DNA of 64,000 bases, from contig JAVBNI010000087.1 of assembly GCA_031551645.1 (NCBI GenBank), positions 13,381-77,380 on the forward strand, written 5' to 3'. The position numbers and the translations under genes were made by a program. The DNA is from Bacteroidales bacterium (GTDB taxonomy: Bacteria > Bacteroidota > Bacteroidia > Bacteroidales > UBA4181). Shown here one piece after another: positions 1,189-30,149 of the stretch (within the stretch, counting starts at the first letter, position 1; every line of letters begins with the position of its first letter). Under the pieces are notes generated by a model that was not told where the DNA came from, ran no database searches, and saw only the letters and a list, made by a program, of their open reading frames with translations.

Positions 1189-2463
1189 TTAGTTTTGCGA
1201 AGCCGGAGATTCATTGATCAGTTTCAATGCTTCTTCCATATATACTTCACCGGTCATTTCACCTAATGAGGTTTGGCTGATATATCTATATCTTTCAAAA
1301 CTATTGAAATCCACTTTTGTAAGTATGTATCCAAAAGCATCGTTGGTTAATCCGAAAAGAAACGGTTGGGTGGTTTTCATGTTCCTTTTCATATAAAACC
1401 CGATGTTGGGAAGCGCTTCTCCCGGGATTGTCAGGATTTGAGCTTTACCAACATTCACAAGGTTTAATCTGGTTGAAATCGATTCAAATGTTTTATCAGC
1501 AGTTTTTTCGCCAATGGGAGAATTTTTTAAGACATAACGCATGATTTCCGAATCAACCGGAAACGATATCATCTTTGAAGTACAATAGAGGTCGGGATTG
1601 TCATTGACCGGAGCATCGGCTATAATTCTCAGCGCTTCGTCGGCAAGCAGATTGCCAATTCTGACACACTCGTCCCAATGATTCGCTTCTTTTCCACCCT
1701 CAAGCCGTACATCAGCAGTTACCATGCCGCCTTGTGCACTATTCATAAACAATGCCATTCCTCCCGCTTTGGATTCTATCCTGTCATATAACGGGCCGCA
1801 AAGATCCGGGCTGATCAGTTTCCGCTTCGTCCCGAGAATTTCGGGGTGTGTGGCATAATTAACCAGGGTGGCGATAACTTTGCCTTTATTCTTTCCCGAA
1901 GCCGATATTGCCTGTATGACCCCACAACGCGGATCATACAACTTGTCAGCATAATAGTTATATGCGATTTTACCTTTGGCTTCGCCCACTGCTGTTTTTA
2001 TTGTGGCCGGTTCCAGTTTCGAAATTGCTTCGTTTACAGCTTCGGCGACCATTTTCGTACACCAGTCCAAATATTCCAAGTCTGCGCCAATTTTCCCATC
2101 TTTATCAGGAAAAGCATATGCATCTGGAGCGCTGTGCGTATGAGTTACACCAATCATGACATTTTGCGGAGGAATGCCCTTGATTAAATTTCTTGACCGG
2201 TCTCCCAGGTATGACGGCCAACCAATATTATCAATTCCGACAATTGCTACTCGTGTACCTCCTTTTTCCAATACAAGAGCCCTAACGAAAAGGTCTCCTT
2301 TTTTGCCTTCAGGAGGGGAAGGAGTTCCCATACCTCCGGAAATCGGGATAAGTTTGGAAGGAGTGATGACACGATATGCCGCACCTGCTTTAAAAGTCTG
2401 GGCATCGAGCCTGGTTATCAACAAGGAGAGAAATAAAATAGCTACAAGTCTTATTGTTTTCAT
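1189..2463 (-). CDS. Neutral/alkaline non-lysosomal ceramidase-like protein (divergent fifth paralog), secreted
   Basis: ATG start with an N-terminal signal peptide (MKTIRLVAILFLSLLITRLDAQ). It carries a GVTHTHSAPD motif and the upstream G...DLFVRALVL pattern typical of the neutral ceramidase N-terminal domain. Confidence 0.65.
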   Translation of the reverse strand: MKTIRLVAILFLSLLITRLDAQTFKAGAAYRVITPSKLIPISGGMGTPSPPEGKKGDLFVRALVLEKGGTRVAIVGIDNIGWPSYLGDRSRNLIKGIPPQNVMIGVTHTHSAPDAYAFPDKDGKIGADLEYLDWCTKMVAEAVNEAISKLEPATIKTAVGEAKGKIAYNYYADKLYDPRCGVIQAISASGKNKGKVIATLVNYATHPEILGTKRKLISPDLCGPLYDRIESKAGGMALFMNSAQGGMVTADVRLEGGKEANHWDECVRIGNLLADEALRIIADAPVNDNPDLYCTSKMISFPVDSEIMRYVLKNSPIGEKTADKTFESISTRLNLVNVGKAQILTIPGEALPNIGFYMKRNMKTTQPFLFGLTNDAFGYILTKVDFNSFERYRYISQTSLGEMTGEVYMEEALKLINESPASQN

Positions 2464-2488
2464 ATACGATGATTTTATGTATAACGTT

Positions 2489-3808
2489 TTAGTCTATATA
2501 AATGGGATTTGTATAAATCCATGGAAGATATTTTCCCCGGATTTTCAAATGCATCTCGAGTCTGTATGCGCCTTTTTGAACCGGTTCCTTCCACTCAAAT
2601 TCATATCTGTCGTCCGAAGAGACGTAAATCACTTTCCCATTATGGATCAATTTGAATTGTCCCGGGAAAGGCGACACGGCATTAAGTGAAGCAACATCGC
2701 TTATCTTCAATGAATCGCCTAAAATTCCGGCAACAGAACCGGCGTTGTTCTTTGCATAATAACAAAATCCTCTGGCATCGCCAAGATCCGTAAAAGCGGT
2801 AAAATGATGTCCCCTTTTTAAATGCCTGGTTATTGATGATAAAGTCAACGAATCGGCAAACAAGAAATTTGATACATACTTGAAATTGCATTCATATGTG
2901 TCGATCATCATTTTAAATATCCAACCATTTTCATCCGGTTCGCTCAACAACCACTTGTTCCAAATGGTTACCTGCTTTATACCAATAGGTTTTGCGTTGG
3001 GGCCGTACCACTTGACACGCCCGTCGGGAAGCATTTTGGCCCTGAGATTTATATTTTCATGCGTATCCACTGCCGAAAAACCGACCACTTTCCGGTGTGT
3101 ATTCAACGAATCCCACCTTGCGAGGATAGATGTCTGTTCATCGAATATTTCCCTCATTACCCATGACCGATACTTATTCTTATTGATCAGCGCATTGACA
3201 ATGAACGGAAAATATGACGGTTCGTCCAAAATATCCGTATGTATGTTATATATCTCCATTCCCTGGTAATACGGACTATCCCAGTTATGAGGCTCTTCCG
3301 TGTGGGCATAAAACATCATTCCGCCTTCCCGGATGATATTTTTTGATACGGTATCAATGTTCCTTCCCCAATCGATAATGGTTTCTTTCATAGGCCAGGC
3401 GTCGAAACCCGCTTTTTCCGATCCGGGTTCGATCAATACGCCATCATACAATCCCTTGTATCCTCTTGGAAAAGTATCCAGATTGCCATGAGGATGATCC
3501 GTTAGAAATATAAAATCGATTTGATTTTTCTTGGCTGCGGGAATGATATCATATAGTGTTCCTTCACAATCATGCGACCAGAAACTGTGCATGTGAAGCA
3601 CTCCCCGGTATATGTTATAACCTACAATATTACCCGGCTCTTTCCGTAGTTTCGCTAATTCTTTGACCTGTTTTTCAAATTTGGGATAAGTGACCACATG
3701 CCGCCAAATTGGACGGGCAAATATGATCAGGAATACAACTACCAAGAGTACTAAAACTGAAAGAATCAAATATTTTAACGCTTTCAATATCTTTTTTAAG
3801 ATGTTCAT
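2489..3808 (-). CDS. PHP-domain metal-dependent phosphoesterase with N-terminal membrane anchor
   Basis: HMHSFWSHDCEG and FLTDHPH motifs indicate PHP-type metal ligands. The N-terminus has a hydrophobic helix (LILSVLVLLVVVFLIIF). Confidence 0.6.
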   Translation of the reverse strand: MNILKKILKALKYLILSVLVLLVVVFLIIFARPIWRHVVTYPKFEKQVKELAKLRKEPGNIVGYNIYRGVLHMHSFWSHDCEGTLYDIIPAAKKNQIDFIFLTDHPHGNLDTFPRGYKGLYDGVLIEPGSEKAGFDAWPMKETIIDWGRNIDTVSKNIIREGGMMFYAHTEEPHNWDSPYYQGMEIYNIHTDILDEPSYFPFIVNALINKNKYRSWVMREIFDEQTSILARWDSLNTHRKVVGFSAVDTHENINLRAKMLPDGRVKWYGPNAKPIGIKQVTIWNKWLLSEPDENGWIFKMMIDTYECNFKYVSNFLFADSLTLSSITRHLKRGHHFTAFTDLGDARGFCYYAKNNAGSVAGILGDSLKISDVASLNAVSPFPGQFKLIHNGKVIYVSSDDRYEFEWKEPVQKGAYRLEMHLKIRGKYLPWIYTNPIYID

Positions 3809-3856: not shown

Positions 3857-5242
3857 TTAACGGATGACCATATCGGATATGCGCCGCATCATATCAAAAG
3901 TATAATCCCCCATACTGGGGCCAAACCATCCCATGGCTCTTGATTCATACTGATCCCTGTCAAAGTACCTTCCGGGAACGATATATCCCACATAATTGCC
4001 GTTGAAGCTGGTAACGTTGGCTTTAAATCCTTTAGTCCAAAGATAATTTTTAAGCTGGAGTGCATATTCTCCGGAAAAGTCAGCCGGGGTGGTGACCCAC
4101 ACCATATTATTTAACCGGATAGCCTGAAGAATGGAATGATCGGGAATAGGCGACAACTTATTACTCAACGATGGAATTAAAGACCTCTTTTTCAAAATTC
4201 TGAAACTATATTTCGGCAAGTCGAATTTGAGCGTAACAGTAGAAAATACTACTTTGTCTTCCATCGGTGTTCTTGCTATTTGAGCAAGAACGGTATCGGC
4301 CAACGCTTCGCCAAGCGATTGCGGTCTGGCAAAACCTTCTCCCTGGGTAACAGGACTTTGACTTCCTACAGAACCGGCACAGAATATGGCATAGTCGGCA
4401 AACGATTGTTCCATTTTTCTTTGCCAATAACCGGGATAATCGCCACTAAATTCCATATTATCTGCCCCCATTGTTGTTGAATGGGCTGAAAAAGAACCAA
4501 TCACAGCTTTTTTAGCTCCTATCTGTTCCAATACGATATAGCTGAAATCATCGTTCTTGGTTCCCAGATCGCCGATAACACGATTTCTTGTATAAGATGC
4601 TGCCGGAATATTGTCCGACCCAATGGTTGCAGGCTTCAGGTCCTGGATGGCTTTTTTTACCACAGCAACAATTTGCTGCGTAACCCAGTGCTGGACATTT
4701 TCATTCTCCGGCCCTGAAAATTTTGGCCCGACTATTCCTGTCCCCCAACCACCAATACTGGAATGGCTGTGTGTTGCAGAAAACATCAATTGACCCCTGT
4801 TGATTCCGTCCCGATGCAATATATCAACAACAGGATCAATGATATTAGGGGGCAAAACAAGCATATCGACGCCTACAATAACCATTATCTTATCATCTAA
4901 TTTTAAGGCCGCAGCTTTTGCAAAAATGGAATCATGTATTCCTGTGGCGGGCTTTCCATCCCTGGCTCCATATCCGGCCAAAGGAATTTCTTTGAATTTC
5001 CCTTCCCTGGCATTATCTTCCGGGGAATTAAGTCCCGGGGTGATACTTACTTTTGCAAAACCCGCTTCTAAAGGATAAACTACTGTAACAGCGGTTTCCT
5101 TCAAACTATCCAACCGGAGACAACTTTTTTTATAATAATCGGATTCGTAAAAGGAAGTTCTGTCAATTTTACGGGTAGCCGACAACAGTACGGTAAGAAG
5201 TACTGCAATGATGACGCATACAACGATGATAATTTTTTTCAT
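3857..5242 (-). CDS. Neutral ceramidase-like protein, paralog 1 of tandem array (signal-anchor type)
   Basis: Contains the motifs GIHDSIFAKAAAL and FSATHSHSSIGGWG. It aligns along its length with the ORFs at 6428, 9101 and 10648. ATG start at 5242. Confidence 0.7.
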   Translation of the reverse strand: MKKIIIVVCVIIAVLLTVLLSATRKIDRTSFYESDYYKKSCLRLDSLKETAVTVVYPLEAGFAKVSITPGLNSPEDNAREGKFKEIPLAGYGARDGKPATGIHDSIFAKAAALKLDDKIMVIVGVDMLVLPPNIIDPVVDILHRDGINRGQLMFSATHSHSSIGGWGTGIVGPKFSGPENENVQHWVTQQIVAVVKKAIQDLKPATIGSDNIPAASYTRNRVIGDLGTKNDDFSYIVLEQIGAKKAVIGSFSAHSTTMGADNMEFSGDYPGYWQRKMEQSFADYAIFCAGSVGSQSPVTQGEGFARPQSLGEALADTVLAQIARTPMEDKVVFSTVTLKFDLPKYSFRILKKRSLIPSLSNKLSPIPDHSILQAIRLNNMVWVTTPADFSGEYALQLKNYLWTKGFKANVTSFNGNYVGYIVPGRYFDRDQYESRAMGWFGPSMGDYTFDMMRRISDMVIR

Positions 5243-5450: not shown

Positions 5451-6362
5451 TTATTTCGATTTCAAGTGTTTGTCGAAAAAATCTTCAATCGGCTTCATGT
5501 TCTCTGGTTGCTCAAATTCGGGGCCACCATGCGTTCCTCCTTTGACGGTAATGAACAGGCAATTGGCTCCCGCTTCCCTCAGAGCCTTATCGTACATTAC
5601 GCTCTGTTCATATGGAACAAGCTCATCCTCATCGCCGTGCAGAATAATAATGGGCACCACATCTTTTTTTACATAGCTCATGGGGCTGGCCTTCGTCCAA
5701 GCCTCTTTCGGATTTGGATGATTGGGATCGATCAGACGTCTTCTCGAGGAGGATTTCTGTTCGTTGGTTGCTTCCGAGCTGGCCGAAGCATAGACGGAAA
5801 GATCAACCACTCCGAAAAGATCGCATACCGCTTGAATATCACTTGATTGATCGAGATACTCTCCCACTTCAAATTCCTTCATTCCTGCGGTCGACCCCAT
5901 CAAGGCGACAAGGTGGCCTCCAGCCGAAGCCCCCCAAACTCCAATGTGTTTTTTGTCAATCTTATACTGTTCCGCGTGGGCGCGAAGCCAGCGAACAGCG
6001 GATTTACAATCTTGTAACTGAGCTGGAAAATAGGCTGCATCAAGAAGGCGATAATTGGTAATAACGACGACATAACCTTTAGGAACCAACCAGTTGGACA
6101 GAAAGACATATTCGTCCTTATTCCCTCTCACCCAACCACCTCCATGTACGGCAAAGATCGTCGGGTATGGTTTTTTTGCCTTTTCATAATCTTTGGGAAG
6201 GTAGATATCCAACTGCTGACGATATCCCCCGCCCGTCACGTAAGGAATGTTTTTGAGGACAATGAGATCCGGACTCGGTTCAACTTTTCTCTGTCCCCAA
6301 GCAAATGAGGAAAATAGTCCAAGAAACAAGGACACAACGATCAAATTTTTGTATGAAATCAT
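5451..6362 (-). CDS. Secreted alpha/beta-hydrolase esterase (HGGGW oxyanion motif, GASAGGH nucleophile elbow)
   Basis: Signal peptide MISYKNLIVVSLFLGLFSSFAWGQ, followed by HGGGW, GxSxG (GASAGG) and HGDEDELVP motifs. It is a close paralog of 8113..9003. Confidence 0.75.
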   Translation of the reverse strand: MISYKNLIVVSLFLGLFSSFAWGQRKVEPSPDLIVLKNIPYVTGGGYRQQLDIYLPKDYEKAKKPYPTIFAVHGGGWVRGNKDEYVFLSNWLVPKGYVVVITNYRLLDAAYFPAQLQDCKSAVRWLRAHAEQYKIDKKHIGVWGASAGGHLVALMGSTAGMKEFEVGEYLDQSSDIQAVCDLFGVVDLSVYASASSEATNEQKSSSRRRLIDPNHPNPKEAWTKASPMSYVKKDVVPIIILHGDEDELVPYEQSVMYDKALREAGANCLFITVKGGTHGGPEFEQPENMKPIEDFFDKHLKSK

Positions 6363-6401: not shown

Positions 6402-6429
6402 TCAATTGTCAATTGTCCATTGTCAATTT
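6402..6429. repeat. 7-bp-periodic tract TCAATTG x4 (one variant) overlapping the stop codon of the gene at 6428..7828
   Basis: Read directly: TCAATTG TCAATTG TCCATTG TCAATTT. Confidence 0.85.
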
Positions 6430-7828
6430 AACGAATAACAATATCCGCCATCTGGCGAATAAGGTCGGCAGAATAATCACCCATATTCGGGCCAAGCCAA
6501 CCCATGTCTTTCGATTCGTACATGTTGAGGAAAAAGTATTTGCTCGGGATAATATATCCGGCATAACTACCGTTAAACCCGGTTACATTCGCATTGAAAC
6601 CTTTCGGAAAAAGATAGTTTTTTGTCTGAAGCGCTATTTCTCCCGAAAAATCTCCGGGCGCAGATATCCAAACCATATTATTTAATCTCATCGCCTGAAG
6701 TACCGGATATTTCGGACCGGGTATCATTTTGTGGCTGAGAGCAGGTACAAGCGACCTCCTGTTCATGAGGCGGATGTTATATTCAGGCAAATTCAATTTC
6801 ATGGTAATGGCCGAAAATATTACACTGTCTTTCATCGGAGTTGTTGAAGCGCATTTCAATACGGTATCGGCCAGGGCTTCTCCATATATTTGGATTCGCT
6901 CGAACCCTTCTCCACCAATGATTACAGGACTTTGACTTCCCACTCCTCCGGCACAGAAAAAAGCATAATCAGCAAAAGTACTTTCCATTTTTCTTGCCCA
7001 GTAACCGGGATATTCGCCGCTTACTTCCATATTCTTCGCACTCATGATGGTGGGATGAGCCGAGTAGGAACCGATAATAGCCTTCTTACCTCCGATTTGT
7101 TCCAGGATAATATAGCTAAAATCGTCATTCTTGGTACCCAATTCGCCTATAACGCGGTTCCTGGTAAATGATGCCGCAGGTACATTACCGGAACCAATCA
7201 ATGCCGGCTTTAAATCCTTTATAGCTGTTCGTACAGATAGAGAAATCTGAGAAGCCAGCCAGCTCACCATGTTTTCATTCGGTTCTCCTGCGGTTTTTGA
7301 ACCCATAAGCCCCATGCCCCATCCGCCTAAGCTGGAGTGGCTATGAGTTGCGGAAAACATCAATTGATCCCTGCTTATTCCCGCTTTACGCAGCATGGAT
7401 ACAACCGTGTCTGCAATATTGTGGGGCATAATCACCAGGTCGGCTCCCAATATAACCATCAGCCGGCCAGCAACTTTAATGGCTGCAGCGCTGACAAAAA
7501 TCGAATCGTGTATTCCGGTTACAAATTTACCTTGCCTTGCGCTATAACCACCTAAAGTAACGTTTTTAAATTTTCCTTCGGCTATATTGTCTTCGGAATG
7601 GTTAAGGCTCGGTGTGATACTTATTTTGGCGAAACCTGCTTCGAGCGATTGATAGACCGAAGCGTTGTTCTTTCGAAGACTATCCAACTGAACGAGACTT
7701 TTTTTATAATAATCGCACTCGTAGTAGGAAGTTCTGTCAATTTTGCTGGTACCCAAAAACAATGCGGTGAGAGCTACAATGAGAAGTACCGCAATGATGA
7801 CGCATAGGGTGATGATAAATTTTTTCAT
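6428..7828 (-). CDS. Neutral ceramidase-like protein, paralog 2 (signal-anchor type)
   Basis: Contains FSATHSHSSLGGWG and GIHDSIFVSAAAI and aligns with the other paralogs. ATG start at 7828. Confidence 0.7.
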   Translation of the reverse strand: MKKFIITLCVIIAVLLIVALTALFLGTSKIDRTSYYECDYYKKSLVQLDSLRKNNASVYQSLEAGFAKISITPSLNHSEDNIAEGKFKNVTLGGYSARQGKFVTGIHDSIFVSAAAIKVAGRLMVILGADLVIMPHNIADTVVSMLRKAGISRDQLMFSATHSHSSLGGWGMGLMGSKTAGEPNENMVSWLASQISLSVRTAIKDLKPALIGSGNVPAASFTRNRVIGELGTKNDDFSYIILEQIGGKKAIIGSYSAHPTIMSAKNMEVSGEYPGYWARKMESTFADYAFFCAGGVGSQSPVIIGGEGFERIQIYGEALADTVLKCASTTPMKDSVIFSAITMKLNLPEYNIRLMNRRSLVPALSHKMIPGPKYPVLQAMRLNNMVWISAPGDFSGEIALQTKNYLFPKGFNANVTGFNGSYAGYIIPSKYFFLNMYESKDMGWLGPNMGDYSADLIRQMADIVIR

Positions 7829-8112: not shown

Positions 8113-9003
8113 TTATTTCAAGTATTTTGCAAAAAAAGCTTCAATCGGCTTCAGTACTTGTGGCTGCATATAATCAGGGCCGCCGTGTTTCCCTCCTTTG
8201 ACGGTAATGAACTGACAATCGACACCCGCTTCTTTCAGAGCTTTGTCATAAATCACGCTCTGTTTGTATGGGACAAGTTCATCATCGTCACCATGCACGA
8301 TAATGGTAGGCGCCATATCTTTTTTCACGTAGGTCATGGGACTGGCTTTCATCCAGGCATCTTTCTGATTCGGGTGTTCAGGATCGATCAAACGTTTTCT
8401 CGATGCTCTAAGCGTTTCCGGATTGAGCGAAGCAATGGCGGAGAAGTCGGTCGGCCCGAAAAGATCGCACACCACTTGAATATCGCTCGATTGGTCAAGG
8501 TATTCACCCGTGTCGAATTCCTTCATTCCTGCGGTCGATCCCATCAAAGCGACGAGGTGAGCTCCGGCCGAAGCTCCCCAAGTCCCAATGTGTTTTTTGT
8601 CGATCTTATACTTTTCCGCATTGGCACGAAGCCAGCGAACGGCGGATTTACAATCTTGTAACTGAGCCGGGAAGTAGGCTACGTCGAGAAGACGATAATT
8701 AGTGATTGCGACGATATAACCTTCGGGAACCAGCCAGTTGGCCAGGAAAACGTATTCTTCCTTGCTCCCTTTTGTCCAACTACCCCCGTGTACAACAAGT
8801 ATTGTCGGGTACGGCTTTTCCGCTTTTTCATAACCTTTGGGAAGATAGAGATCTAACTGCTGGCGGTATTCCCCGCCTGTCACATAAGGAACGTTTTTGA
8901 GGACAACGAGATCCGGGTCCGGATCGACCTTCTGCCCCCAAACAAATGAAGAAAATAGTCCAAGAAACAAGGACACAACGATTAATTTTTTGTACGAAAT
9001 CAT
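8113..9003 (-). CDS. Secreted alpha/beta-hydrolase esterase, paralog of 5451..6362
   Basis: Carries the same motifs (HGGSW, GASAGAH, HGDDDELVP). The ORF track begins at a GTG at 9054. The ATG at 9003 gives MISYKKLIVVSLFLGLF..., matching the paralog N-terminus, so I prefer it. Confidence 0.75.
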   Translation of the reverse strand: MISYKKLIVVSLFLGLFSSFVWGQKVDPDPDLVVLKNVPYVTGGEYRQQLDLYLPKGYEKAEKPYPTILVVHGGSWTKGSKEEYVFLANWLVPEGYIVAITNYRLLDVAYFPAQLQDCKSAVRWLRANAEKYKIDKKHIGTWGASAGAHLVALMGSTAGMKEFDTGEYLDQSSDIQVVCDLFGPTDFSAIASLNPETLRASRKRLIDPEHPNQKDAWMKASPMTYVKKDMAPTIIVHGDDDELVPYKQSVIYDKALKEAGVDCQFITVKGGKHGGPDYMQPQVLKPIEAFFAKYLK

Positions 9004-21796: not shown

Positions 21797-21828
21797 ATTG
21801 ACTTATAGTTTAAAATTACTGATTTTTG

Positions 21829-22325: not shown

Positions 22326-22341
22326 GCTTAAACGTTTAAGC
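22326..22341. promoter_or_regulatory. LacI/GalR-type operator palindrome, distal site, copy 1
   Basis: GCTTAAACGTTTAAGC is a 16-bp perfect palindrome with the same AAACGTTT core. Confidence 0.5.
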
Positions 22342-22526
22342 GACAACTTATAAAACCACTATAGCCTTTTCTCGATCTCCCTTCTTGTAGATTAAACAAA
22401 ACAATTTTCCCTCTTGCCTAAAAACTTCACTCTCATTTGTATCATTAATCGATATTTTGTATAAAATCGTAGAAGCAATCGAATATGCAAATATGAATAC
22501 TAAAACTTATACATCAGCCCTCATTT

Positions 22527-22561
22527 TGCGTGTTTAAATCCTCAAAACGCGCATTTTTTTT
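22527..22561 (+). terminator. Plus-strand intrinsic-terminator-like hairpin in module leader, copy 1
   Basis: A 9-bp stem (22527-22535 / 22545-22553, one G-U pair) with a 9-nt loop, followed by T8 (22554-22561). It is conserved with two compensatory pair changes at 30764-30798. Confidence 0.55.
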
Positions 22562-22671
22562 GAAATTATCAACTATAATAATTTCACATACACACCGGTA
22601 TTCATTTATTTGCAGATTCAGTTGAACGTTGACAGGATAGTGGTGATGTTCCGTTAGTTTTAAATCATACT

Positions 22672-24030
22672 TTAATTACTTTTTACCAGTAACCTTTTGT
22701 CCGTGGTCACAAACATTCTTGTGCTCTTAGTGTATTCGTGGCCGGTTTTCGTCTTATACTTCAGATCAACAAAGAAAGCTTTGTATCCCGATTTAGGATA
22801 ATCAATATGCACAACGATTTCTTTTTTATGGGCTGCATTCAGGTCTTCGCCCGACCAGCTATCATTTCTGAAATCCTGATCTTCCGATTCCGCATGCCAC
22901 AACTCAGCACCTAACAACAAATCCGGGGTTGTTGTTACATTTAATGTAATGATATTGGATTGTTCACTGATTGAATAATCGCATAGCGAGTGGCTTTCTC
23001 CGGTAGCCGTTATTTCAAAAAATGCGCCCAACGATGCAAATGCTTTTTGTCCGTTGCCAAGATTGTGTTTTACATTGGGGACATAACAGGTAAAATTCAC
23101 GCCCGGAATATCGTCAATGTAATTTTTCACTGCGTCAACAGGCCAGTATGGGTCGTTTGTACCCATAACCAACATTTTCGGCATGGTTAATGTTTTTCTG
23201 TATGAATAAGGATCTACCATTGTTACAAGATCCTGGCCACCCTTGCTTGTGATCTGTTGAGTAATTCCCAAATCAACATAATCCTGAATTTCTACGCTGT
23301 AATCCTTCCAGACCTCAATTTGGTAATCTACGCTTACAGGCATATTCAACACATCGATTACCATGGGTGCGATGGCTTTTACACGCTTATCGTTTGCGCC
23401 AGTCAGCCAGGTTGTCCATCCCCGTTTCGATTGCCCTGAAATCAGAAATTCTTTCACCTTCCATTCCAATTCCTTGTCGGTAAATTGCTGTATAGCGTCC
23501 ATCGCTTTGATGGCGCTTTTGGTCATGGGGAAAAGCAATGGCCAGGTCATATCGCCGTCATTCAAATAGTTGTGCAAGGTATAGGATATTAACGCATCTT
23601 CGGAAAGACCGTTATAGAGCGGTTGATTGGGTACCTGCCAGAGTACGGCTGTAACCGCCATACTGTTTTTTGCAGTTTGAAGCATGGGCGCAATAAATTT
23701 TCGGGCCCATTGCGGTGTGTGCGGCTCTCCATCTTCTATTTCGCCTCCGGTTATATACAAAAGGGCATCATGATATTTCAATATGTCAGGAACGATGATC
23801 ACCATCTCATGTTTCCACACGAATTCCCTCCATTGTTGTGAGGTAAATATCAACCGGTAAAGGGTTGCTCCTTCATTTTGGATTTTTTCAACCAGTTTCC
23901 ACTTAAAGGAATTGTCGGAGTTGTTGATATAAGCTTGTAGTGCCGTTTCAGGAGTCACCGGCTTTTTGGCTCCGGTACAACCGGCAAAAAAAAGGCCACT
24001 GATGGAAATAAGAAATAGTAACTTTTTCAT
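22672..24030 (-). CDS. PhoPQ-activated (PqaA)-like alpha/beta-hydrolase lipoprotein, copy 2
   Basis: Lipobox FFAGC and the SGQSKRGWTTW motif. It aligns along its length with 14291..15649. Confidence 0.6.
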   Translation of the reverse strand: MKKLLFLISISGLFFAGCTGAKKPVTPETALQAYINNSDNSFKWKLVEKIQNEGATLYRLIFTSQQWREFVWKHEMVIIVPDILKYHDALLYITGGEIEDGEPHTPQWARKFIAPMLQTAKNSMAVTAVLWQVPNQPLYNGLSEDALISYTLHNYLNDGDMTWPLLFPMTKSAIKAMDAIQQFTDKELEWKVKEFLISGQSKRGWTTWLTGANDKRVKAIAPMVIDVLNMPVSVDYQIEVWKDYSVEIQDYVDLGITQQITSKGGQDLVTMVDPYSYRKTLTMPKMLVMGTNDPYWPVDAVKNYIDDIPGVNFTCYVPNVKHNLGNGQKAFASLGAFFEITATGESHSLCDYSISEQSNIITLNVTTTPDLLLGAELWHAESEDQDFRNDSWSGEDLNAAHKKEIVVHIDYPKSGYKAFFVDLKYKTKTGHEYTKSTRMFVTTDKRLLVKSN

Positions 24031-24043
24031 ATTTAACTGTCTT

Positions 24044-24078
24044 AAAAAAAGCAGGAGATACTCTATAGTATCCCCTGC
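24044..24078 (-). terminator. Hairpin plus T-tract between susD-like and PqaA-like genes, copy 2
   Basis: Same stem as copy 1 with one change. That change is a G-U wobble in minus-strand RNA but an A-C mismatch in plus-strand RNA. T7 follows on the minus strand. Confidence 0.6.
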
Positions 24079-24097
24079 CTAACATTTCTAAAATAAA

Positions 24098-25747
24098 TTA
24101 CCAAGGCTTTCCAGTGTCTTTCAAAAGCCACATCTTAGACCAGGCGCTATTTTTACCGTCTTCTAAGTTATAATTTGTAGCGTCTAAATTTTGAATAGCC
24201 ACATCTACATTATCTCCATTATAATCCAACTCATTAAGGCCATAATAAAATCTTATTGGTATTGCATTTCTTTTAACAACGGTTCCGGGTTTAAGTGCAG
24301 GCAACCCGGTTCTTCGCCAGTCAAACCAAGCTTCGGTTGCAGCGCTCCAACTGGCAATCCATTTTTGCCACATGATTTGCTCCAAGGTATTGTCATATGT
24401 TACACGAGCCACATAATCAGCATAAGAATCTCCTACACCCCATGTATCAAATGAAGCTTTGATACCGGCATAGAAGTTTTCTTCTGCAGTACCTATGGAA
24501 GGCAACCCTCTCCATGCTAACTCGGCCAGGATAAAATACATTTCGGAAGCAGACAACATTCTGGTCTTTAATAAATCACCTGTTGCATTTTTATACATGG
24601 AGCTGATATGGGATGCGTGAGGGTTAATTGGAGCCTGCGCCAGGTTAGGATTAAGATTATATGACTGGGCGTTGGCATGCCATGCCGGAGGAAGTCCAAT
24701 ATAATCTTTGTTCAGGTTTAAAGGAACCTTATAATTATCTTCATAGGTTTTTGCTACGCCTGTTCCAATTACGCGCTCTCCATCTATAATTTTATCAAAA
24801 TCAGCAGGTTTACTGGGATCAATCACCAAAGGAGTCGCTATTTTATCAGCCCACACAGGCAGCCTGGGATCTTTCAAGTCTCTTAATAATTCCACTAATG
24901 TAGAACACATTTTCAATCGTCTCCAATTGGTTTCGTCGGCATTATATTTTGTATTACAAGGCCAGGAATCACTGCCACTACTCCCGACATAAGCAAACGC
25001 AGCATCATCCGCATGGTCAAGAGTAAGAGGATATTTATCAGGGTTGTTGATAATCTTGGCAATCCCCGCTTCTGCAATACTTGGCTCTTTATCTAGTATT
25101 CTCAAATAATACCGTAAAGCCAGAGAATTCGCAAATTTTCTCCATTTGATTACGCTTCCACCAAACAATACATCTAATGTATTATCTACAGTATATTGGC
25201 TTTGTCCCTTGGAGAGCAAGGTGTTCGCCTCTTCCAGATATGCGAGAATACCCAAATAAATATCCCTTTGTGAATCATACACAGGTTTTGCAACACCTTC
25301 TTCTCCTTTCAAGGCATCGCTAAAAGGAGCGTCTCCCCAAATATCGGCGATTATCCCAAAGTTGTATGCTTTAAACACTAACGCGGCTCCTTCATAAAAT
25401 TCAAGTCCCATATTATGGGCCTTTTGACGCATTTCTTCGGCATTCCGGAGATTTCCATAATAATCATCCCAATTCTGGGAAGTAGTCCAGTCATAAGAGT
25501 TATGTCCACTGGCCCAACCATCCTTTTGGGTATGTTGCATGACTCCTGCAATATCCCCAAAACCTAAACCTAATACTCTGGTACCCGTTTCAGTTATAAC
25601 AGTGCCAAGTAAAAATTTGGGGTTTGTTTTAGCCGGATCTATACCATTGGGATTGATATTTATTTCATCTAAATCTTTACATGAATAAAAAGAAAAGCCC
25701 GTCAAAAAAAGTATCAGAATTATATGTAAATTATATGTTTTCATCAT
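24098..25747 (-). CDS. SusD/RagB-family outer-membrane lipoprotein, copy 2
   Basis: Lipobox SFYSC, followed by KDLDEININPNG. The C-terminus ends ...NSAWSKMWLLKDTGKPW. Confidence 0.85.
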   Translation of the reverse strand: MMKTYNLHIILILFLTGFSFYSCKDLDEININPNGIDPAKTNPKFLLGTVITETGTRVLGLGFGDIAGVMQHTQKDGWASGHNSYDWTTSQNWDDYYGNLRNAEEMRQKAHNMGLEFYEGAALVFKAYNFGIIADIWGDAPFSDALKGEEGVAKPVYDSQRDIYLGILAYLEEANTLLSKGQSQYTVDNTLDVLFGGSVIKWRKFANSLALRYYLRILDKEPSIAEAGIAKIINNPDKYPLTLDHADDAAFAYVGSSGSDSWPCNTKYNADETNWRRLKMCSTLVELLRDLKDPRLPVWADKIATPLVIDPSKPADFDKIIDGERVIGTGVAKTYEDNYKVPLNLNKDYIGLPPAWHANAQSYNLNPNLAQAPINPHASHISSMYKNATGDLLKTRMLSASEMYFILAELAWRGLPSIGTAEENFYAGIKASFDTWGVGDSYADYVARVTYDNTLEQIMWQKWIASWSAATEAWFDWRRTGLPALKPGTVVKRNAIPIRFYYGLNELDYNGDNVDVAIQNLDATNYNLEDGKNSAWSKMWLLKDTGKPW

Positions 25748-25755: not shown

Positions 25756-28700
25756 TTAAAAAGTAACATTTAATTTAAAACCGATCGGAAAAACCCAAGG
25801 CTCAACATTATACCTTTCGATACCCTGTTTCATCTGGATTCCCCGTCTACCTTCAGTAGATGCTTCCGGTTGGAAAGCCCGTTCAGGATCAACTCCGATC
25901 CCAGCTTTGGTCCACAACATGATATTACGACTATAAACAGATACTGCCATGCCTTTTATCCCTTTGATCTTGTTGAGAAACTTGCTGGGTAACTGATAGG
26001 TTAACGAAATTTCACGAAGTTTTACATAATCTGCATCAAATGTAGATGGTTTTCCAAACTCCCAGGGATAAGATCCGATATAAGGTTGAATTAAGGTAGT
26101 ACCTTCTTCACCCAGGTTTTCCTTATAGGTAACATTGCCTTGATCGTCAGTTATAGCAATTACACCCGGCACAAAACACCCGTCATTTACAGGTGTACCC
26201 CCATAGCTTTCACGGAATCCTCCATATTCCACGGTAGGACCGCCCACCACATGAAATCCGTTCTTAATTAGGTCATCTTCATTGGCTACTAACCAATTCT
26301 TCAATTCCTCGCCTGTCCTTCCGCCCGGATGGATCAACCTGTCCAAATGCGTTTGAGAAGATCCGTCTTCGGCCATATAACGTTCTGTTTGCGACACAAA
26401 CTGACCACCATTTCTCCAATCAATGGTCCAGTTTAGTGAAAAGTTTTTATAGGATAAAGTGGACTGAAAGCCCAAGATAAACTTGGGATTATAATTTCCT
26501 ATTCTGTTTTTTGTACTTTCCATTTTTGTTTCCTGCCATTCATATGCGTCAGAGCTTATAATCGGATAACCATAATAAGGTGAATTTGTGTCCGTCACTA
26601 TAAGCATCTCAGCATCGTAAATATCCCCTATTTCATCGCCGACATATGACCATGCACCACATTTTGCATCTTCCCAAAATTGAATTTTGTCAACATTCGG
26701 AGCTATTTCTTTCAAAATTGTTCGGTTTCTCGTAATATTAATACTGACATCCCACATCCAGCTTTGATTTCTTACAGGTACACCTCCGACCGTAAATTCC
26801 CAGCCCTTGCTTTTAATCAAACCGGCATTAATATTTGCCGATGTATAACCACTGGACCCAGCCTGCTTAACATTAGGTATAATTTGATTTTTATTTTCAA
26901 TTTCATAATATGTCCCTTCAAATCTTAATCTGTGGTCAAAAAACCCCAAATCTGTACCGAATTCTATCGAAGTTGCAATCTCGGGCTTCAAAGTGGGGGA
27001 TAATAATTCGCCTTTCTTATTCAACCGGACAGCATCACCCCATTGTCCGCTATTACCATATGTGGCAATCAATTGATACGGACTGGTATCGTTACCTACT
27101 TGAGCCCATCCGCCTCTAAGCTTGACTAATGAAACCCGGTCTCCCATATTGATCATTTGATCGATCAACAGGCTTAAGGATGCAGAAGGATAAAAATAAG
27201 ACCTGTCGTTTGGGGGAAGGGTACTTGTCCAGTCATTCCGGGCTGTCAAATCAAGGTAAACCATATCTCTCCATCCAAGATTGGCAAAAGCATACACGCT
27301 TCGAATAACCTTCTCAGACCAATTACTATTATAAACAAGATTGCCCGACACAATATTGTCAATAGTAAACAGGTTTGGAATAACCAATCCCGATCCCCCC
27401 TTTTTAGAAGAATTTGAAAAAGAGGTAGCTTTCGCATACATCATATTGCCGCCTGCAGAAACGACAAAGCTAAAATCATTCAAACGTTTGGAATATTTTG
27501 CCAAAAAATCAATGTTCCGTTCATAATTTGAGGTGTTCTGAAGGCCATAAAAACCATTAATTTCCTTTGTATACCCACTTGATATTTTTCCTTCGCGCCT
27601 TTCAGAAAACTTATCCATGGAGAAACGTCCCATCAGGCTGATATCGGAAAAGATTTGCCATTCCAGCATTAAGTTACCAAAAATCCTGTCCCTGTCAAAA
27701 CTATTATTTACTTCATGTGCCAAATAGTAGGGGTTATTGTATTGTTCCACATCAGGCACTCTTTGTACCAGCCCTTCATTCCCCGGCTCCCAATACTGCT
27801 CTAAATCCCTGATATCGGTATTTTGCGGAACAGCATATGCCCATTGTAACGGGTTAGTACCCCGATTGCCCGAAGGCCGATTATTTGACCAATTCTGACT
27901 ATAATTGATATTCGAACTAAGCGTTATATTGTCTGCCATTTTCAGAGATGTAGCTGCAGAAACATTGTTCCTGTACAAATCCGAATTGGGAACAATCCCT
28001 CTGTTGATCATATTGGTTACGCCAATCCTGTAATTGTACCGTTCAGTATTATTCGAAACAGACGCCGAATTGGTGGTAGTAATTCCGGTTTGTACAAAAT
28101 TGGCCACATTGTTGGGATGCGACACCAATTCTGTAGGTATTTGAGATCCGTTTGCATCAAGAGGACTATTCCATTGAATGGCATAATATCCTTTATCCAG
28201 TTCAATACCACAACCTGCAGCCAGCTTTGGATCTATATTCATGACGTATCCATCAGGAAAATCGCTTGGCACATAGGAAAAATAACCATTGGCAAATTTT
28301 TTCTGGATGTTATAATATCGATATGGAACATCAAATACGGTATTTGAACTGACATCAACCTGTAATCCTTTGTTTTTCTTTCCGGATTTTGTGGTAATCA
28401 CCACAACTCCGTTCCCTGCGCGTGAACCATATAGGGCAGCTGCACTGGGGCCTTTCAATACCGATACGCTTTCGATATCTTCCGAATTCAAATCGGACAT
28501 CGCATTTCCAAAATCGACACGATTATCAGATCCGAACTCAGTAACATTATTTAATGTATTGGAAATAGGAACCCCATCAACAACAAACAATGGTTGATTG
28601 TCATTACTTAATGATTTAGCCCCACGTATGACCATACTCACAGAAGAACCTGTACCTCCGGTAGAATTAATCTGGACGCCCGATACCTTGCCCGAAAGTG

Positions 28701-29208
28701 AATTCAGTGCATTTTCCTGTACCACCCTAACCATATCCGACCCGCTTACTTTCCCAACAGAGTAGCCAAGCGATTTTTCCTGGCGGCTAATCCCCAAAGC
28801 GGTTACCACTACTTCTTCCAACGCCGTAACATCTTCAATTAAGACTAAATCAATCGTACGTCTTTCGCCTACGACTATTTCCTGAGTTTGAAAACCAATA
28901 AAAGAAAAAATCAAGGTTACATCACCTGAAGGCACATCCAATGTATAATCTCCGTTCAAACCGGTAACAGTCCCTTTCGAAGTACCCTTTATCACAACGC
29001 TGACACCTGGTAATCCGTCTTTTTCGGTATCGGCAGTAACTTTACCTTTAATTGTAAAACCCTGCTGTACACTTACATTTTCTGAACCTGCCAAAGCAAT
29101 GCCTAAAAACAAAGTAGAAACCAGCAAAAGAGACAATACCCTTTTCGTATTTTTTCCAATCATGTATAAGTATTTCATGTATCTTGTTTTTAATAATTGA
29201 TTAATCAT
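25756..29208 (-). CDS. SusC/RagA-family TonB-dependent transporter, copy 2 (start uncertain: ATGs at 29208, 29178, 29163)
   Basis: Same domain order as copy 1, ending ...KLNVTF. Confidence 0.9.
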   Translation of the reverse strand: MINQLLKTRYMKYLYMIGKNTKRVLSLLLVSTLFLGIALAGSENVSVQQGFTIKGKVTADTEKDGLPGVSVVIKGTSKGTVTGLNGDYTLDVPSGDVTLIFSFIGFQTQEIVVGERRTIDLVLIEDVTALEEVVVTALGISRQEKSLGYSVGKVSGSDMVRVVQENALNSLSGKVSGVQINSTGGTGSSVSMVIRGAKSLSNDNQPLFVVDGVPISNTLNNVTEFGSDNRVDFGNAMSDLNSEDIESVSVLKGPSAAALYGSRAGNGVVVITTKSGKKNKGLQVDVSSNTVFDVPYRYYNIQKKFANGYFSYVPSDFPDGYVMNIDPKLAAGCGIELDKGYYAIQWNSPLDANGSQIPTELVSHPNNVANFVQTGITTTNSASVSNNTERYNYRIGVTNMINRGIVPNSDLYRNNVSAATSLKMADNITLSSNINYSQNWSNNRPSGNRGTNPLQWAYAVPQNTDIRDLEQYWEPGNEGLVQRVPDVEQYNNPYYLAHEVNNSFDRDRIFGNLMLEWQIFSDISLMGRFSMDKFSERREGKISSGYTKEINGFYGLQNTSNYERNIDFLAKYSKRLNDFSFVVSAGGNMMYAKATSFSNSSKKGGSGLVIPNLFTIDNIVSGNLVYNSNWSEKVIRSVYAFANLGWRDMVYLDLTARNDWTSTLPPNDRSYFYPSASLSLLIDQMINMGDRVSLVKLRGGWAQVGNDTSPYQLIATYGNSGQWGDAVRLNKKGELLSPTLKPEIATSIEFGTDLGFFDHRLRFEGTYYEIENKNQIIPNVKQAGSSGYTSANINAGLIKSKGWEFTVGGVPVRNQSWMWDVSINITRNRTILKEIAPNVDKIQFWEDAKCGAWSYVGDEIGDIYDAEMLIVTDTNSPYYGYPIISSDAYEWQETKMESTKNRIGNYNPKFILGFQSTLSYKNFSLNWTIDWRNGGQFVSQTERYMAEDGSSQTHLDRLIHPGGRTGEELKNWLVANEDDLIKNGFHVVGGPTVEYGGFRESYGGTPVNDGCFVPGVIAITDDQGNVTYKENLGEEGTTLIQPYIGSYPWEFGKPSTFDADYVKLREISLTYQLPSKFLNKIKGIKGMAVSVYSRNIMLWTKAGIGVDPERAFQPEASTEGRRGIQMKQGIERYNVEPWVFPIGFKLNVTF

Positions 29209-29219
29209 AATATGTCTTT

Positions 29220-30149
29220 CTATTTTATTGCCTCAAATGTAAAAACAGCCGCATGAGTTGGCTTGCTATAATGTTCGCCTGTGGATGTTGCAAGAAACAT
29301 AGCAACCAGCATCTTTTCAGGGGATAATTCTAAAATAATATAATCCCGGGTAAAATCCAGCAATCCAAAAAACTCTCCATCTGCAACGTTGAAATGTATT
29401 ACATTCTTATAGGTCCTATCGGTAACCGTTTTACCATCCGCGCTAACAGTTGGAATAGAAAAATCACCTTCTTTAAAAGTAAATGCTGCATTTTCCTTTG
29501 ATGGATAAGTAACGTAACTCAAACCATAAGTTTTCGAGTTACCTTTTTTTATTTCCAACTTACTAAGTGTTGCAAATACAAGACCGGAAAATGCGCCACC
29601 GCCTTTTGCTACACGTTGGAAACTACCATCGCTTTTAAAAAGAAATTCATCAGCATAAGCCTCCACCATTCCCAAAAAAGCCCCCAATGCTCCCTCAGGA
29701 ATTGGTTGAACAGAAGTAAAATTATCATCTGCATACGCAAGGCGGTCATTTTTAGAATGGCTAGAACTTATTTTCCATTTTTTTCCGTCGGGGTAAGTGT
29801 TGTCACCTGCAAGCATCTGGAGATTTGAAAGTGCCAAGGCTACACTCTTGGTAATTTGTTTTGTCTCCCCATTGCCGGTTACCTTAAGTGTCACAGAGTA
29901 GGTACCACCTTCATCATAAATGTGGACCGGATTTCGATCATTACTGGTATTTCCATCGCCGAAATCCCATAAAAAGGAATCTCCAAAGTTAATCATGGGA
30001 GTAAAAGCCGCTTGTTTCCCAGCAACACTAGAAAAGAAATTCAATGTCTCAGTTGGCTCACTCTTAGGCTCTTTCTCCTTACAGGATTGAAATGAAGCGA
30101 ATGCACAAAAGACAAAAGCTACACATAAAAATAGATTTGATTTTTTCAT
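29220..30149 (-). CDS. PKD-domain surface lipoprotein, first gene of module copy 2
   Basis: 31 of the first 33 residues are identical to 20864..21796. PKD signature FLWDFGDGNTSNDRNPVHIYDEGGTYSVTLKVTG. Confidence 0.7.
   Translation of the reverse strand: MKKSNLFLCVAFVFCAFASFQSCKEKEPKSEPTETLNFFSSVAGKQAAFTPMINFGDSFLWDFGDGNTSNDRNPVHIYDEGGTYSVTLKVTGNGETKQITKSVALALSNLQMLAGDNTYPDGKKWKISSSHSKNDRLAYADDNFTSVQPIPEGALGAFLGMVEAYADEFLFKSDGSFQRVAKGGGAFSGLVFATLSKLEIKKGNSKTYGLSYVTYPSKENAAFTFKEGDFSIPTVSADGKTVTDRTYKNVIHFNVADGEFFGLLDFTRDYIILELSPEKMLVAMFLATSTGEHYSKPTHAAVFTFEAIK

Follow-up and report, generated by a model that had tools for sequence, protein, structure and literature searches.

What does a SusC/SusD locus import when none of its genes encodes a glycan-cleaving enzyme? 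SusCD loci are the main polymer-harvest tool of the Bacteroidota, and the studied examples almost all target glycans. A 64-kb stretch of contig JAVBNI010000087.1 from a Bacteroidales bacterium (hereafter, the window) contains a ~29-kb train of minus-strand genes, running from position 30149 down to position 1189, that combines two SusC/SusD pairs with 12 exported hydrolases. An initial annotation, made from the bare sequence, had read this train as an uptake and breakdown system for an acylated, phosphorylated lipid or glycolipid. We report here that the train is, by comparison with related loci, an enlarged member of a widespread, uncharacterized class of SusCD loci, and that five of its enzymes are members of the neutral-ceramidase fold. 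Its substrates could be the headgroups or backbones of acylated phospho-glycolipids, an identification that we hold to be possible without calling it probable.

A SusCD gene train without glycosidases

The ORF (open reading frame) listing gives 18 minus-strand ORFs of at least 100 aa between 30149 and 1189, all of them co-directional (Table 1). The orientation and coordinates of the train were as first described, while the count of 19 genes was one too high. Could a 19th gene lie in the 876-bp stretch at 21797-22671, where alone a further gene would fit? We rejected this candidate: ORFs there are all 35 aa or shorter, and no Rfam family matches. Nor are the gaps short throughout, as had been stated, since five of them run to 876, 284, 208, 194, and 186 bp. 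The gene order is two tandem PKD-SusC-SusD-PqaA-like modules followed by YdjC, two PHP, two BD-FAE, and five neutral-ceramidase-fold proteins. Corresponding proteins of the two modules are paralogues (identities in Table 1), as are the two BD-FAE proteins and the four CerA proteins, which share 54 to 71% identity; the train is built from duplications.

All 18 proteins bear an N-terminal signal peptide, lipobox, or transmembrane (TM) anchor, the last in CerA3, CerA4, and PHPL, and the claim that every enzyme is exported or anchored thus holds for the whole train. The chemistries of the 12 hydrolases are those of serine esterases, Zn amidases, PHP metallophosphoesterases, and a YdjC deacetylase.

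We searched all 18 proteins against Pfam and NCBIfam at E<=0.01. No glycoside hydrolase (GH), polysaccharide lyase (PL), sulfatase, or regulator family was found among them, as the initial annotation had it. Peptidase-named matches were limited to the generic alpha/beta-hydrolase ones (Peptidase_S9, S15) of the two BD-FAE esterases. Perhaps some of the hydrolases are cryptic glycosidases? We rejected this possibility as well, as no such enzyme emerged from these searches or from the fold searches with CerA and PqaA described below. The train encodes no endo-acting or surface enzyme. It also has no adjacent hybrid two-component system (HTCS), SusR, or extracytoplasmic function (ECF)/anti-sigma regulator, again as first noted: its 5' neighbors are the guanylate kinase gene gmk and YicC, and the nearest regulator is a LacI-family gene at 59503-60528. 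Because it has neither a GH or PL nor a dedicated regulator, the locus is not a polysaccharide utilization locus (PUL) in the canonical sense.

The transport core, in contrast to the canonical definition's enzymes and regulator, is conventional. Both SusC proteins have CarboxypepD_reg, Plug, and barrel domains and also match TIGR04057 (63 and 61 bits; cutoff, 46), and neither has an STN domain by Pfam or NCBIfam. The SusD proteins match PF12741 at 128 and 160 bits in addition to PF12771, and their N termini read ...FSC and ...YSC followed by KDLDE; each SusD gene begins 9 to 13 bp beyond its SusC gene. Judged by these profiles, both pairs are SusC and SusD proteins in full, and the first description of two pairs lacking STN extensions stands. 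With Pfam run permissively, the C-terminal domains left unassigned in PKD1, PKD2, PHPL, and the PqaA proteins gave no match.

Table 1. Coordinates of the genes and elements of the SusCD train in the window, in the order of transcription
Feature	Position	Strand	Description and evidence
Palindrome 1	30181..30200	.	Operator-like, 20 bp, AAATGTAAACATTTACATTT, one mismatch; 32-51 nt 5' of PKD1 start codon
PKD1	29220..30149	-	Candidate surface lipoprotein; PF18911 49 bits; N terminus ends ...SFQSC; 200-aa C-terminal domain without Pfam match
SusC1	25756..29208	-	SusC/RagA TonB-dependent transporter; TIGR04056 595 bits (cutoff 368)
SusD1	24098..25747	-	SusD-like_2 lipoprotein; PF12771 245 bits; nearest PDB entry 3ejn, E 1e-33
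Hairpin after SusD1	24049..24080	-	Terminator/attenuator-like, with T-run; 14-bp stem; -21.2 kcal/mol, z -5.7
Pqa1	22672..24030	-	PhoPQ_related (PF10142) alpha/beta-hydrolase lipoprotein; 333 bits; lipobox FFAGC; 77% identical to Pqa2
Spacer between modules	21797..22671	.	876 bp, noncoding; contains perfect palindrome AAATGTAAACGTTTACATTT at 21829-21848
PKD2	20864..21796	-	PKD1 paralogue, 50% identity (Pfam, identity comparison)
SusC2	17479..20838	-	SusC/RagA transporter; TIGR04056 613 bits (cutoff 368); 61% identical to SusC1
SusD2	15718..17466	-	SusD-like_2 lipoprotein; PF12771 226 bits; 51% identical to SusD1
Hairpin after SusD2	15669..15700	-	Terminator/attenuator-like, with T-run; -21.8 kcal/mol, z -6.5
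Pqa2	14291..15649	-	PhoPQ_related serine hydrolase lipoprotein; 347 bits
YdjC	13172..14104	-	YdjC-family carbohydrate deacetylase, signal peptide; PF04794 176 bits (threshold 29.7)
PHP+DUF5001	12090..13175	-	PHP metallohydrolase with C-terminal Ig-like DUF5001; PF02811 29.1 bits (threshold 26.4); PF16392 43 bits
CerA1	10648..12000	-	Neutral-ceramidase-fold Zn amidase candidate; PF04734 39.3 bits; HSHS motif; 14-residue deletion after motif
CerA2	9101..10453	-	PF04734 40.6 bits; 71% identical to CerA1
FAE1	8113..9054	-	BD-FAE-family esterase; PF20434 210 bits
CerA3	6428..7828	-	CerA paralogue, N-terminal TM anchor; PF04734 49.3 bits
FAE2	5451..6362	-	BD-FAE-family esterase; PF20434 212 bits; 76% identical to FAE1
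CerA4	3857..5242	-	TM-anchored, orthologue of conserved-core CerA; PF04734 52 bits; model matches 2zws and 4wgk, Zn ligands align; homologues 52-61% identical in 80 loci
PHPL	2489..3808	-	TM-anchored PHP-like metallophosphoesterase, second triad gene; PF02811 22.4 bits, below threshold
CerB	1189..2463	-	Divergent, cleavable signal peptide, third triad gene; PF04734 22.6 bits; orthologues 67-80% identical
Terminator	1061..1110	-	Intrinsic, at train end; 13-bp stem, then TCTTTTTT; -23.1 kcal/mol, z -4.8

Five members of the neutral-ceramidase fold

Five proteins of the train had been called ceramidase-like. Do they belong to that fold? The gathering threshold of PF04734 (Ceramidase_alk) is 32.1 bits; CerA1 to CerA4 score above it (39 to 52 bits) and CerB, which is only 22 to 24% identical to the CerA proteins, scores below it (22.6 bits). 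The matches span only model positions ~8-260 of 509. We also examined the residues themselves. In an alignment of 26 CerA sequences, H158/H160 (HSHS), H254, E392, Y420, and Y432/E433 are invariant. A PDB search with the profile of these 26 sequences returned neutral ceramidases only (2zws, E 6e-12; 4wgk, E 2e-9), and the CerA motifs HSHS, AHST, SGEY, GYI, and EYE align on His97/His99, His204, Glu411, Tyr448, and Tyr460, respectively, of the Pseudomonas aeruginosa enzyme 2zws.

An AlphaFold2 model of CerA4 gave a similar picture. The model is of moderate confidence (pLDDT 68.7, pTM 0.75), and its only significant Foldseek matches were 2zws, 2zxc, and 4wgk (E 1e-18 to 7e-17; TM-score 0.61 to 0.65), the next match falling to E 5e-3. 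When the five paralogues of the window were aligned, the H-x-H, His, and Tyr/Tyr positions were invariant; the Glu column is kept in CerA1 to CerA4, and the PGE of CerB is offset from it. CerB, although below the family threshold, retains the HTHS, H, GYI, and Y residues in this alignment. From the alignments and the model, we conclude that CerA1 to CerA4 and CerB do belong to the neutral-ceramidase fold and have its full Zn site, and that they are nevertheless a distinct branch of it.

The paralogues are not uniform around this site. CerA1 and CerA2 are without a 14-residue segment (IGGWGTGIVGPKFS in CerA4) that directly follows the HSHSS metal-binding motif, a loss that suggests altered substrate-binding loops among the paralogues.

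The remaining hydrolases

The other family labels of the initial annotation (PqaA-like, esterase, PHP, and YdjC) were all borne out by Pfam and NCBIfam, with PHPL falling below the threshold of its family. Catalytic or metal-binding residues are intact in the families examined, namely, the ceramidase-fold, PqaA, and PHPL proteins.

The PF10142 match of Pqa1 and Pqa2 covers model positions 1-367, and the Ser-Asp-His triad of Pqa2 (G-x-S201-x-G, D293, and H322) is invariant in 26 homologues. Structurally, an AlphaFold2 model of Pqa2 (pLDDT 81) lies closest to the acetyl-xylan esterases and the cephalosporin-C deacetylases of carbohydrate esterase family 7 (CE7), followed by glucuronoyl esterases of CE15 and by a putative acetyl-xylan esterase from Bacteroides (E 1e-9 to 1e-7; TM-score ~0.45/0.60). 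In MEROPS, PF10142 also appears among the peptidases, as family S82, and is termed "barely characterised" (PMC11878206). Hence, the earlier statement that the train encodes no peptidase is sound insofar as no dedicated peptidase family was found, and it carries a caveat because of the S82 listing. In the two BD-FAE esterases, PF20434 spans model positions 1-214 of 215; the PDB entries nearest to FAE2 are 6nkf, 6xyc, 6tkx, and 6mly, with acetyl-xylan and carbohydrate esterases among them.

Can the YdjC and PHP proteins be assigned an activity? The YdjC protein does not reach equivalog level: it scores 88 bits for ChbG, 71 for HpnK, and 119 for the Thermus carbohydrate deacetylase, against cutoffs of 227, 233, and 400. 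The PHP protein with DUF5001 stands just at the edge of the CehA/McbA family (NF038032, 81.1 bits; cutoff, 80) and matches PDB entry 3e38 over essentially its full length (E 5e-105). That entry is a two-domain PHP protein (BVU) from structural genomics with no assigned function, and so the match gives a fold and no activity. In PHPL, the metal motifs H72/H74, D104/H105, H169, H190, and D248/H250 are invariant in 26 homologues.

Related loci in environmental Bacteroidota

We wondered if this gene combination recurs. Scanning 185,579 species genomes with the CerA alignment yielded 367 relatives, and 80 loci were examined with 10-kb flanks. Neighbors were typed by Pfam and NCBIfam with one representative per cluster, and the locus counts are minima, since truncated contigs are numerous. 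All 80 loci come from environmental Bacteroidota: Prolixibacteraceae, Draconibacterium, Mariniphaga, Maribellus, Gaoshiqia, Chitinophagaceae, Cytophagaceae, Spirosoma, and Sphingobacteriales. CerA is followed by PHPL in at least 59 of them and by PHPL and CerB, as a triad, in at least 42; SusC-SusD-Pqa occurs in at least 33 and PKD-SusC-SusD in at least 32. The co-occurrence of ceramidase-like and PqaA-like genes with SusCD, which the initial annotation had proposed surveying, is thus a recurrent one. Because of these arrangement counts, we take the core to consist of the last three genes of the window's train plus one PKD-SusC-SusD-Pqa module. By this comparison, PKD-SusC-SusD-PqaA-CerA-PHP-CerB is conserved in dozens of environmental Bacteroidota, and the enzymes of this core are deacylases and phosphoesterases, with no glycosidase among them. 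The second module, the YdjC gene, the 3e38-like PHP gene, three extra CerA genes, and two BD-FAE genes are lineage-specific additions.

Which genes accompany the core elsewhere? In the SusCD-linked loci (type I), a GH31 gene lies divergently upstream in 20 of the 80 loci, often with an Rce1-like gene. We attempted to place this GH31 neighbor in a characterized subfamily and abandoned the attempt as uninformative: alignments to alpha-xylosidase and alpha-glucosidase entries were partial (E ~1e-24). Downstream, a convergent unit encodes a BD-FAE protein and a third ceramidase-like protein of ~519 aa that is TM-anchored (20 loci). This unit often adds a fusion of a PF04185 phosphoesterase with a beta-propeller (10 loci) and an anion-type major facilitator superfamily (MFS) transporter (10 loci). 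The fusion protein, of ~920 aa, joins a 7-bladed beta-propeller to a phospholipase C/acid phosphatase domain; its PF04185 domain scores weakly, and an acid-phosphatase-type NCBIfam model matches at E 6e-8. The convergent unit is present in loci L010, L012, L013, L015, L019, L022, L032, L033, L037, L050, L053, L054, L084, and others; the window is without it.

Further type I neighbors occur sporadically: GDPD, YdjC, BNR_2, GH92, GH172, GH116, a GH109-like oxidoreductase, a GH2 exo-beta-glucosaminidase-like protein, and an ADP-ribosyl-glycohydrolase-like protein. FucP/NagP-type MFS transporters are also among the recurrent partners, and GH78 is among the genes that recur near the module. The glycosidase neighbors of SusCD-linked loci are exo-type only (GH31, GH92, GH116, GH109-like, GH2 glucosaminidase-like, and BNR_2), and no endo-polysaccharidase was found within the flanks of these loci. 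Two variants of the module occur in L087 to L089 (the L087 genome is 7.2 Mb). In one, Pqa is followed by GH109-like, Amidohydro_2, DUF6786, MFS, GH116, and CerA genes; in the other, it is followed by BD-FAE, ADP-ribosylglycohydrolase-like, CerA, and CerB genes, with no PHP protein. Since the variant modules differ in the genes after Pqa, the PHP gene appears to be replaceable.

Candidate regulatory elements

Is expression of the train likely to be uniform? The hairpin at its 3' end had been described as the sole strong terminator (1062-1110). That hairpin is real, and two more of like strength follow the SusD genes (Table 1). Most related loci have a comparable hairpin in their SusD-Pqa spacers (compared over L007 to L084), with a stem on AAGCAG...CUGCUU and a variable inner stem. 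The post-SusD hairpin therefore looks like a conserved attenuator, terminator, or mRNA-stabilizing element between transporter and enzyme genes, and a hairpin after each SusD would hold transporter mRNA above enzyme mRNA.

Each PKD gene is also preceded by a palindrome, the one at 30181-30200 and the perfect copy at 21829-21848. Both sit 32 to 52 nt 5' of the PKD start codons, within 45 nt that the two copies share at 96% identity. The core TGTAAAC[G/A]TTTACA occurs twice in 64 kb, once per PKD gene, and the motif can be written TGTAAACGTTTACA. We take it to resemble the operators of LacI-family regulators; its link to the LacI-family gene of the window is conjectural. Through the common palindrome, one repressor may control both modules.

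Two other kinds of repeat lie in the 3' half of the train. Intergenic elements of 112 nt at 7878-7989 and 10493-10604 (minus strand), 5' of CerA3 and CerA2, are 92% identical, above the conservation of the flanking coding DNA. They fold into a ~20-bp stem-loop and one further hairpin, with energies of -45 and -50 kcal/mol and z of about -7.7; they have no Rfam match and are found nowhere else in the window. Just 3' of the FAE1 stop codon, at ~8050-8105, a heptanucleotide is repeated in tandem, (ATTGAGA) x 8.

What might the locus import?

From the enzymes, we infer a substrate that is importable without depolymerization at the surface and whose sugar or polyol core is substituted with ester-acyl, amide-acyl, and phosphate groups. 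The tentative identification given above, acylated phospho-glycolipids, takes in several candidates: inositol-phosphoceramide, sphingolipids of the glycosyl inositol phosphorylceramide (GIPC) and glycosylphosphatidylinositol (GPI) type, bacterial glycosphingolipids, or glucosamine lipids of the lipid A type may be the source, and none of these is singled out.

How would such a substrate be processed? On the outside of the cell, the PKD and SusD lipoproteins would bind a glycoconjugate that is small and either amphiphilic or oligomeric, and SusC would import it. Stripping would occur in the periplasm, largely at the surface of the inner membrane (IM): the PqaA and BD-FAE proteins would remove ester-linked acyl groups, CerA1 to CerA4 and CerB would remove amide-linked acyl groups, YdjC would remove N-acetyl groups, and the two PHP enzymes would remove phosphate or phosphodiester groups. 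The leftover sugar or polyol core would pass to exo-glycosidases, whose genes adjoin the module in relatives (GH31 and others) and would lie elsewhere in this genome. A wider range of substrates is suggested by the presence of two SusCD modules (51 to 61% identical) and of four CerA paralogues.

Several lines of evidence fit a glycolipid. The only characterized members of the CerA fold cleave lipid amides, and where sphingolipid catabolism is known, ceramidases work alongside PF04185 enzymes: P. aeruginosa couples the PF04185 enzyme PlcH with the PF04734 ceramidase CerN to catabolize sphingomyelin. GH116, one of the sporadic neighbors, includes the glucosylceramidase GBA2. The PF04185, GDPD, and third ceramidase-like genes of related loci likewise fit a phospho-acyl substrate. 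The GIPC-cleaving phospholipase C (GIPC-PLC) releases soluble inositol-phosphate glycans that contain glucosamine (GlcN) or N-acetylglucosamine (GlcNAc) (PMC11496612), products that would suit such a system; the PF04185 enzyme NPC4 of Arabidopsis acts on GIPC, as cited in that article. SusCD-like import of lipid-derived organophosphates also has experimental precedent, since phosphatidylinositol and its headgroups are taken up through PusCD1/2 in Flavobacterium johnsoniae (bioRxiv 10.64898/2026.09.03.749221, September 2026).

Could the train go further and be a dedicated "lipid utilization locus"? Such a locus, conserved in many environmental Bacteroidota, would use SusCD to import whole or partly processed N-/O-acylated phospho-glycolipids and would dismantle them fully in the periplasm, at the IM, for carbon and phosphorus nutrition. 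Candidate substrates are GIPC/GPI-type inositol-phosphoceramides, bacterial glycosphingolipids, and lipid A from necromass. The work would fall to neutral-ceramidase-fold amidases of a new bacterial branch, to PHP phosphatases, and to deacylases of the PqaA family, an orphan family that would thereby gain its first biochemical role. We consider this more extensive proposal rather doubtful.

A number of observations weigh against a lipid substrate altogether. CerA is only ~15% identical to known ceramidases and is without their C-terminal domain, and the ceramidase equivalog NF041649, with a cutoff of 1200, gives just 20 to 22 bits; for these reasons, the acyl-amide substrate of CerA could be non-lipid. 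The PDB neighbors of PqaA and BD-FAE are carbohydrate esterases for short acyl groups. GIPC-type lipids have no ester acyl groups and lipid A has no N-acetyl group, so that no single candidate lipid requires every enzyme. Only 12 of the SusCD-bearing loci are free of a GH-like gene within the flanks, and hence the absence of glycosidases belongs to the arrangement of this genome and not to the family. In about 12 loci (type II), the triad is found without SusCD, inside a same-strand GH2-GH2-beta-helix-GDSL...GH78-GH43-like cluster, and solo CerA genes adjoin GH28/rhamnogalacturonase-like genes; both contexts point to a decorated polysaccharide. The palindrome, finally, is not conserved in relatives, with no exact match and no common palindrome in 34 upstream regions; it appears to be particular to this genome, and its LacI-type form hints at a sugar effector. 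The lipid or glycolipid proposed at the outset thus keeps the enzyme inventory, the ceramidase fold, and the PF04185 and GDPD partners in its favor, while the carbohydrate-esterase-like esterases and the glycosidases of relatives count against it.

Perhaps, then, the train serves to remove the decorations of a complex polysaccharide or cell-envelope polymer that is both acylated and phosphorylated, and would take O-acyl, N-acyl, and phosphate substituents off imported oligosaccharides while the depolymerizing glycosidases are encoded elsewhere? Its target may be a teichoic or teichuronic acid, a capsular or O-antigen glycan bearing unusual N-acyl amino sugars, a polymer linked to peptidoglycan, or a rhamnose-containing plant or algal glycan. 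The type II and solo CerA contexts (the former in ~12 genomes) favor this explanation, together with the structural proximity of PqaA to CE7 and CE15 and of BD-FAE to acetyl-xylan esterases. YdjC is a carbohydrate deacetylase family, GDPD neighbors suit polyol-phosphate polymers, and the window offers the LacI-type palindrome, a LacI gene at 59503-60528, and GH78-type genes at 34618-36246 and 50115-52802. However, these GH78 genes lie beyond housekeeping genes, and their homologues are unlinked to the module elsewhere. Neither the train nor its SusCD-linked relatives encode an endo-depolymerase or a surface enzyme, the only characterized CerA-fold members act on lipid amides, and TM-anchored CerA and PHPL proteins would be unusual for enzymes of soluble oligosaccharides. 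We judge a polysaccharide unlikely, if still a serious contender. A Pho-regulated scavenging of phosphorus, in the manner of the Pus systems, is improbable. SusCD would then import organophosphate headgroups (glycerophosphodiesters, inositol phosphates, or phospho-sugars), the PHP enzymes would liberate phosphate, and the esterases and amidases would merely detach headgroups from lipids. The import of phosphoinositol-lipid headgroups by PusCD1/2 without glycosidases is a precedent, and both the two PHP phosphoesterases of the train and the PF04185 and GDPD neighbors in relatives agree with it. Yet, unlike Pus1 and Pus2, the train has no phosphatidylinositol-specific phospholipase C (PI-PLC), calcineurin-like phosphatase, PhoA/PhoX/PafA, or ECF sigma/anti-sigma gene; deacylases make up 9 of its 12 enzymes, well beyond what phosphate release needs; and the operator-like palindrome is of the LacI type and no Pho box.

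Might the substrate instead be a peptide, lipopeptide, depsipeptide, or xenobiotic amide or carbamate, with SusCD acting like RagAB or BT2263-64? PqaA would then be a peptidase, the ceramidase-fold proteins would be acyl-amide or peptide amidases, and the PHP protein with an immunoglobulin (Ig)-like domain would be a CehA/McbA-like carbamate or ester hydrolase. That PHP protein barely reaches the CehA/McbA cutoff (81.1 versus 80), PF10142 is classed as peptidase family S82, and the SusD-like_2 protein BT2263, found with a bound peptide, is among the PDB matches at E 2.5e-16. However, 3ejn and several glycan-binding SusD proteins outscore BT2263, and S82 is a "barely characterised" family without established peptidase activity (PMC11878206). 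The PqaA model is nearest to carbohydrate esterases, and the YdjC gene and the GH31, GH92, and GH116 neighbors in relatives favor sugars. We consider this possibility very improbable.

Acylated phospho-glycolipids, as headgroups or backbones, accordingly remain the reading that we tentatively prefer. What would follow if it is true? A conserved, glycosidase-poor SusCD module of amidases, esterases, and phosphoesterases would bring acylated phospho-glycoconjugates within the reach of SusCD uptake. In soils, sediments, and lakes, the membrane glycolipids of plants, fungi, and bacteria make up a large and poorly tracked store of carbon and phosphorus. The locus would also give testable functions to three orphan groups: PqaA/PF10142 (S82), the ~450-aa bacterial branch of the neutral-ceramidase fold, and membrane-anchored PHP proteins. 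Carriers are in culture (Maribellus, Draconibacterium, Gaoshiqia, Flavihumibacter, and Chryseolinea), and the question is therefore directly testable.

Other features of the window

Upstream of the train (4.5 kb on its 5' side), a plus-strand cluster at 34618-38650 encodes a GH78-like protein (542 aa), a carboxylesterase (555 aa), and a DUF1349 protein. We considered whether this cluster (34.6-38.7 kb) is part of the locus and rejected the idea: it is divergent, gmk, yicC, and a glycosyltransferase gene lie between, and it is unlinked to the module elsewhere. A full-length GH78 rhamnosidase is encoded at 50115-52802 on the minus strand. The sole match at Rfam gathering threshold in the window is an Acido-Lenti-1 small RNA at 53175-53221 on the plus strand (41.9 bits; E 4e-6), beside a DUF5723 gene. 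At the other end of the window, a plus-strand ORF at 57-554 matches only the C-terminal part of PorP/SprF, a membrane protein of type IX secretion (model positions 152-273), and may be a truncated gene or have a mis-called start.

Comparison with known systems

How does the locus compare with characterized systems? In catalytic-domain fold and in the H-x-H, His, Glu, and Tyr residues of the Zn site, the Cer proteins are like the neutral ceramidases of P. aeruginosa (PaCD/CerN, 2zws) and humans (ASAH2, 4wgk). They differ in length (~450 aa versus >630 aa), ending ~180 residues early with no C-terminal Ig-like domain, in having an N-terminal TM anchor or signal peptide, and in occurring as 4+1 paralogues inside a SusCD locus. 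The PlcH and CerN pair of P. aeruginosa has a parallel in at least 10 related loci, where a PF04185 phosphoesterase gene adjoins a ceramidase-fold gene. The window, in contrast, has no PF04185 gene, and the PF04185 domains of its relatives are fused to a beta-propeller and score weakly; uptake here would proceed via SusCD, whereas the Pseudomonas enzymes are secreted. With the PqaA/AprA family (PF10142, S82), the Pqa proteins have in common a full-length match of 333 to 347 bits and the Ser-Asp-His triad; here, the protein is a lipoprotein and its gene lies directly 3' of SusD in 33 related loci.

The canonical PUL (the Sus paradigm, as in PULDB) is a closer relative in architecture than in content. 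The locus shares with it the tandem susC/susD, an extra surface lipoprotein, signal-peptide enzymes, a strong hairpin after susD, and carbohydrate-esterase-like genes. It differs in having no GH or PL, no surface endo-enzyme, no HTCS, SusR, or ECF regulator, and SusC proteins without STN.

The initial annotation knew of no characterized Sus-like system for such substrates. As a general statement, this is now partly outdated by PusCD1/2 (10.64898/2026.09.03.749221); for this type of locus it stands, as searches of full texts turned up no article that connects neutral-ceramidase-like or PqaA-like genes with SusC/SusD or a PUL. A PDB search with SusD1 returned glycan-type or unannotated SusD proteins only, with no PusCD entry. 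The likeness to Pus lies in a SusC/SusD-like pair in the Bacteroidota, periplasmic phosphoesterases, the absence of GHs, a membrane-lipid-derived substrate (here the one tentatively proposed), and enzymes predicted to be periplasmic. Among the genes of the Pus1 locus are those for a PI-PLC of the periplasm and for a calcineurin-like homologue of GIPC-PLC, and ECF regulators are encoded at both pus loci (10.64898/2026.09.03.749221). Compared by gene content, the locus is not a member of the Pus family: Pus1/Pus2 carry a PI-PLC, the calcineurin-like GIPC-PLC homologue, a PhoA-type phosphatase, and ECF sigma/anti-sigma genes, none of which is in the window, and the window carries PqaA-like, BD-FAE, neutral-ceramidase-fold, PHP, and YdjC enzymes and a PKD lipoprotein instead.

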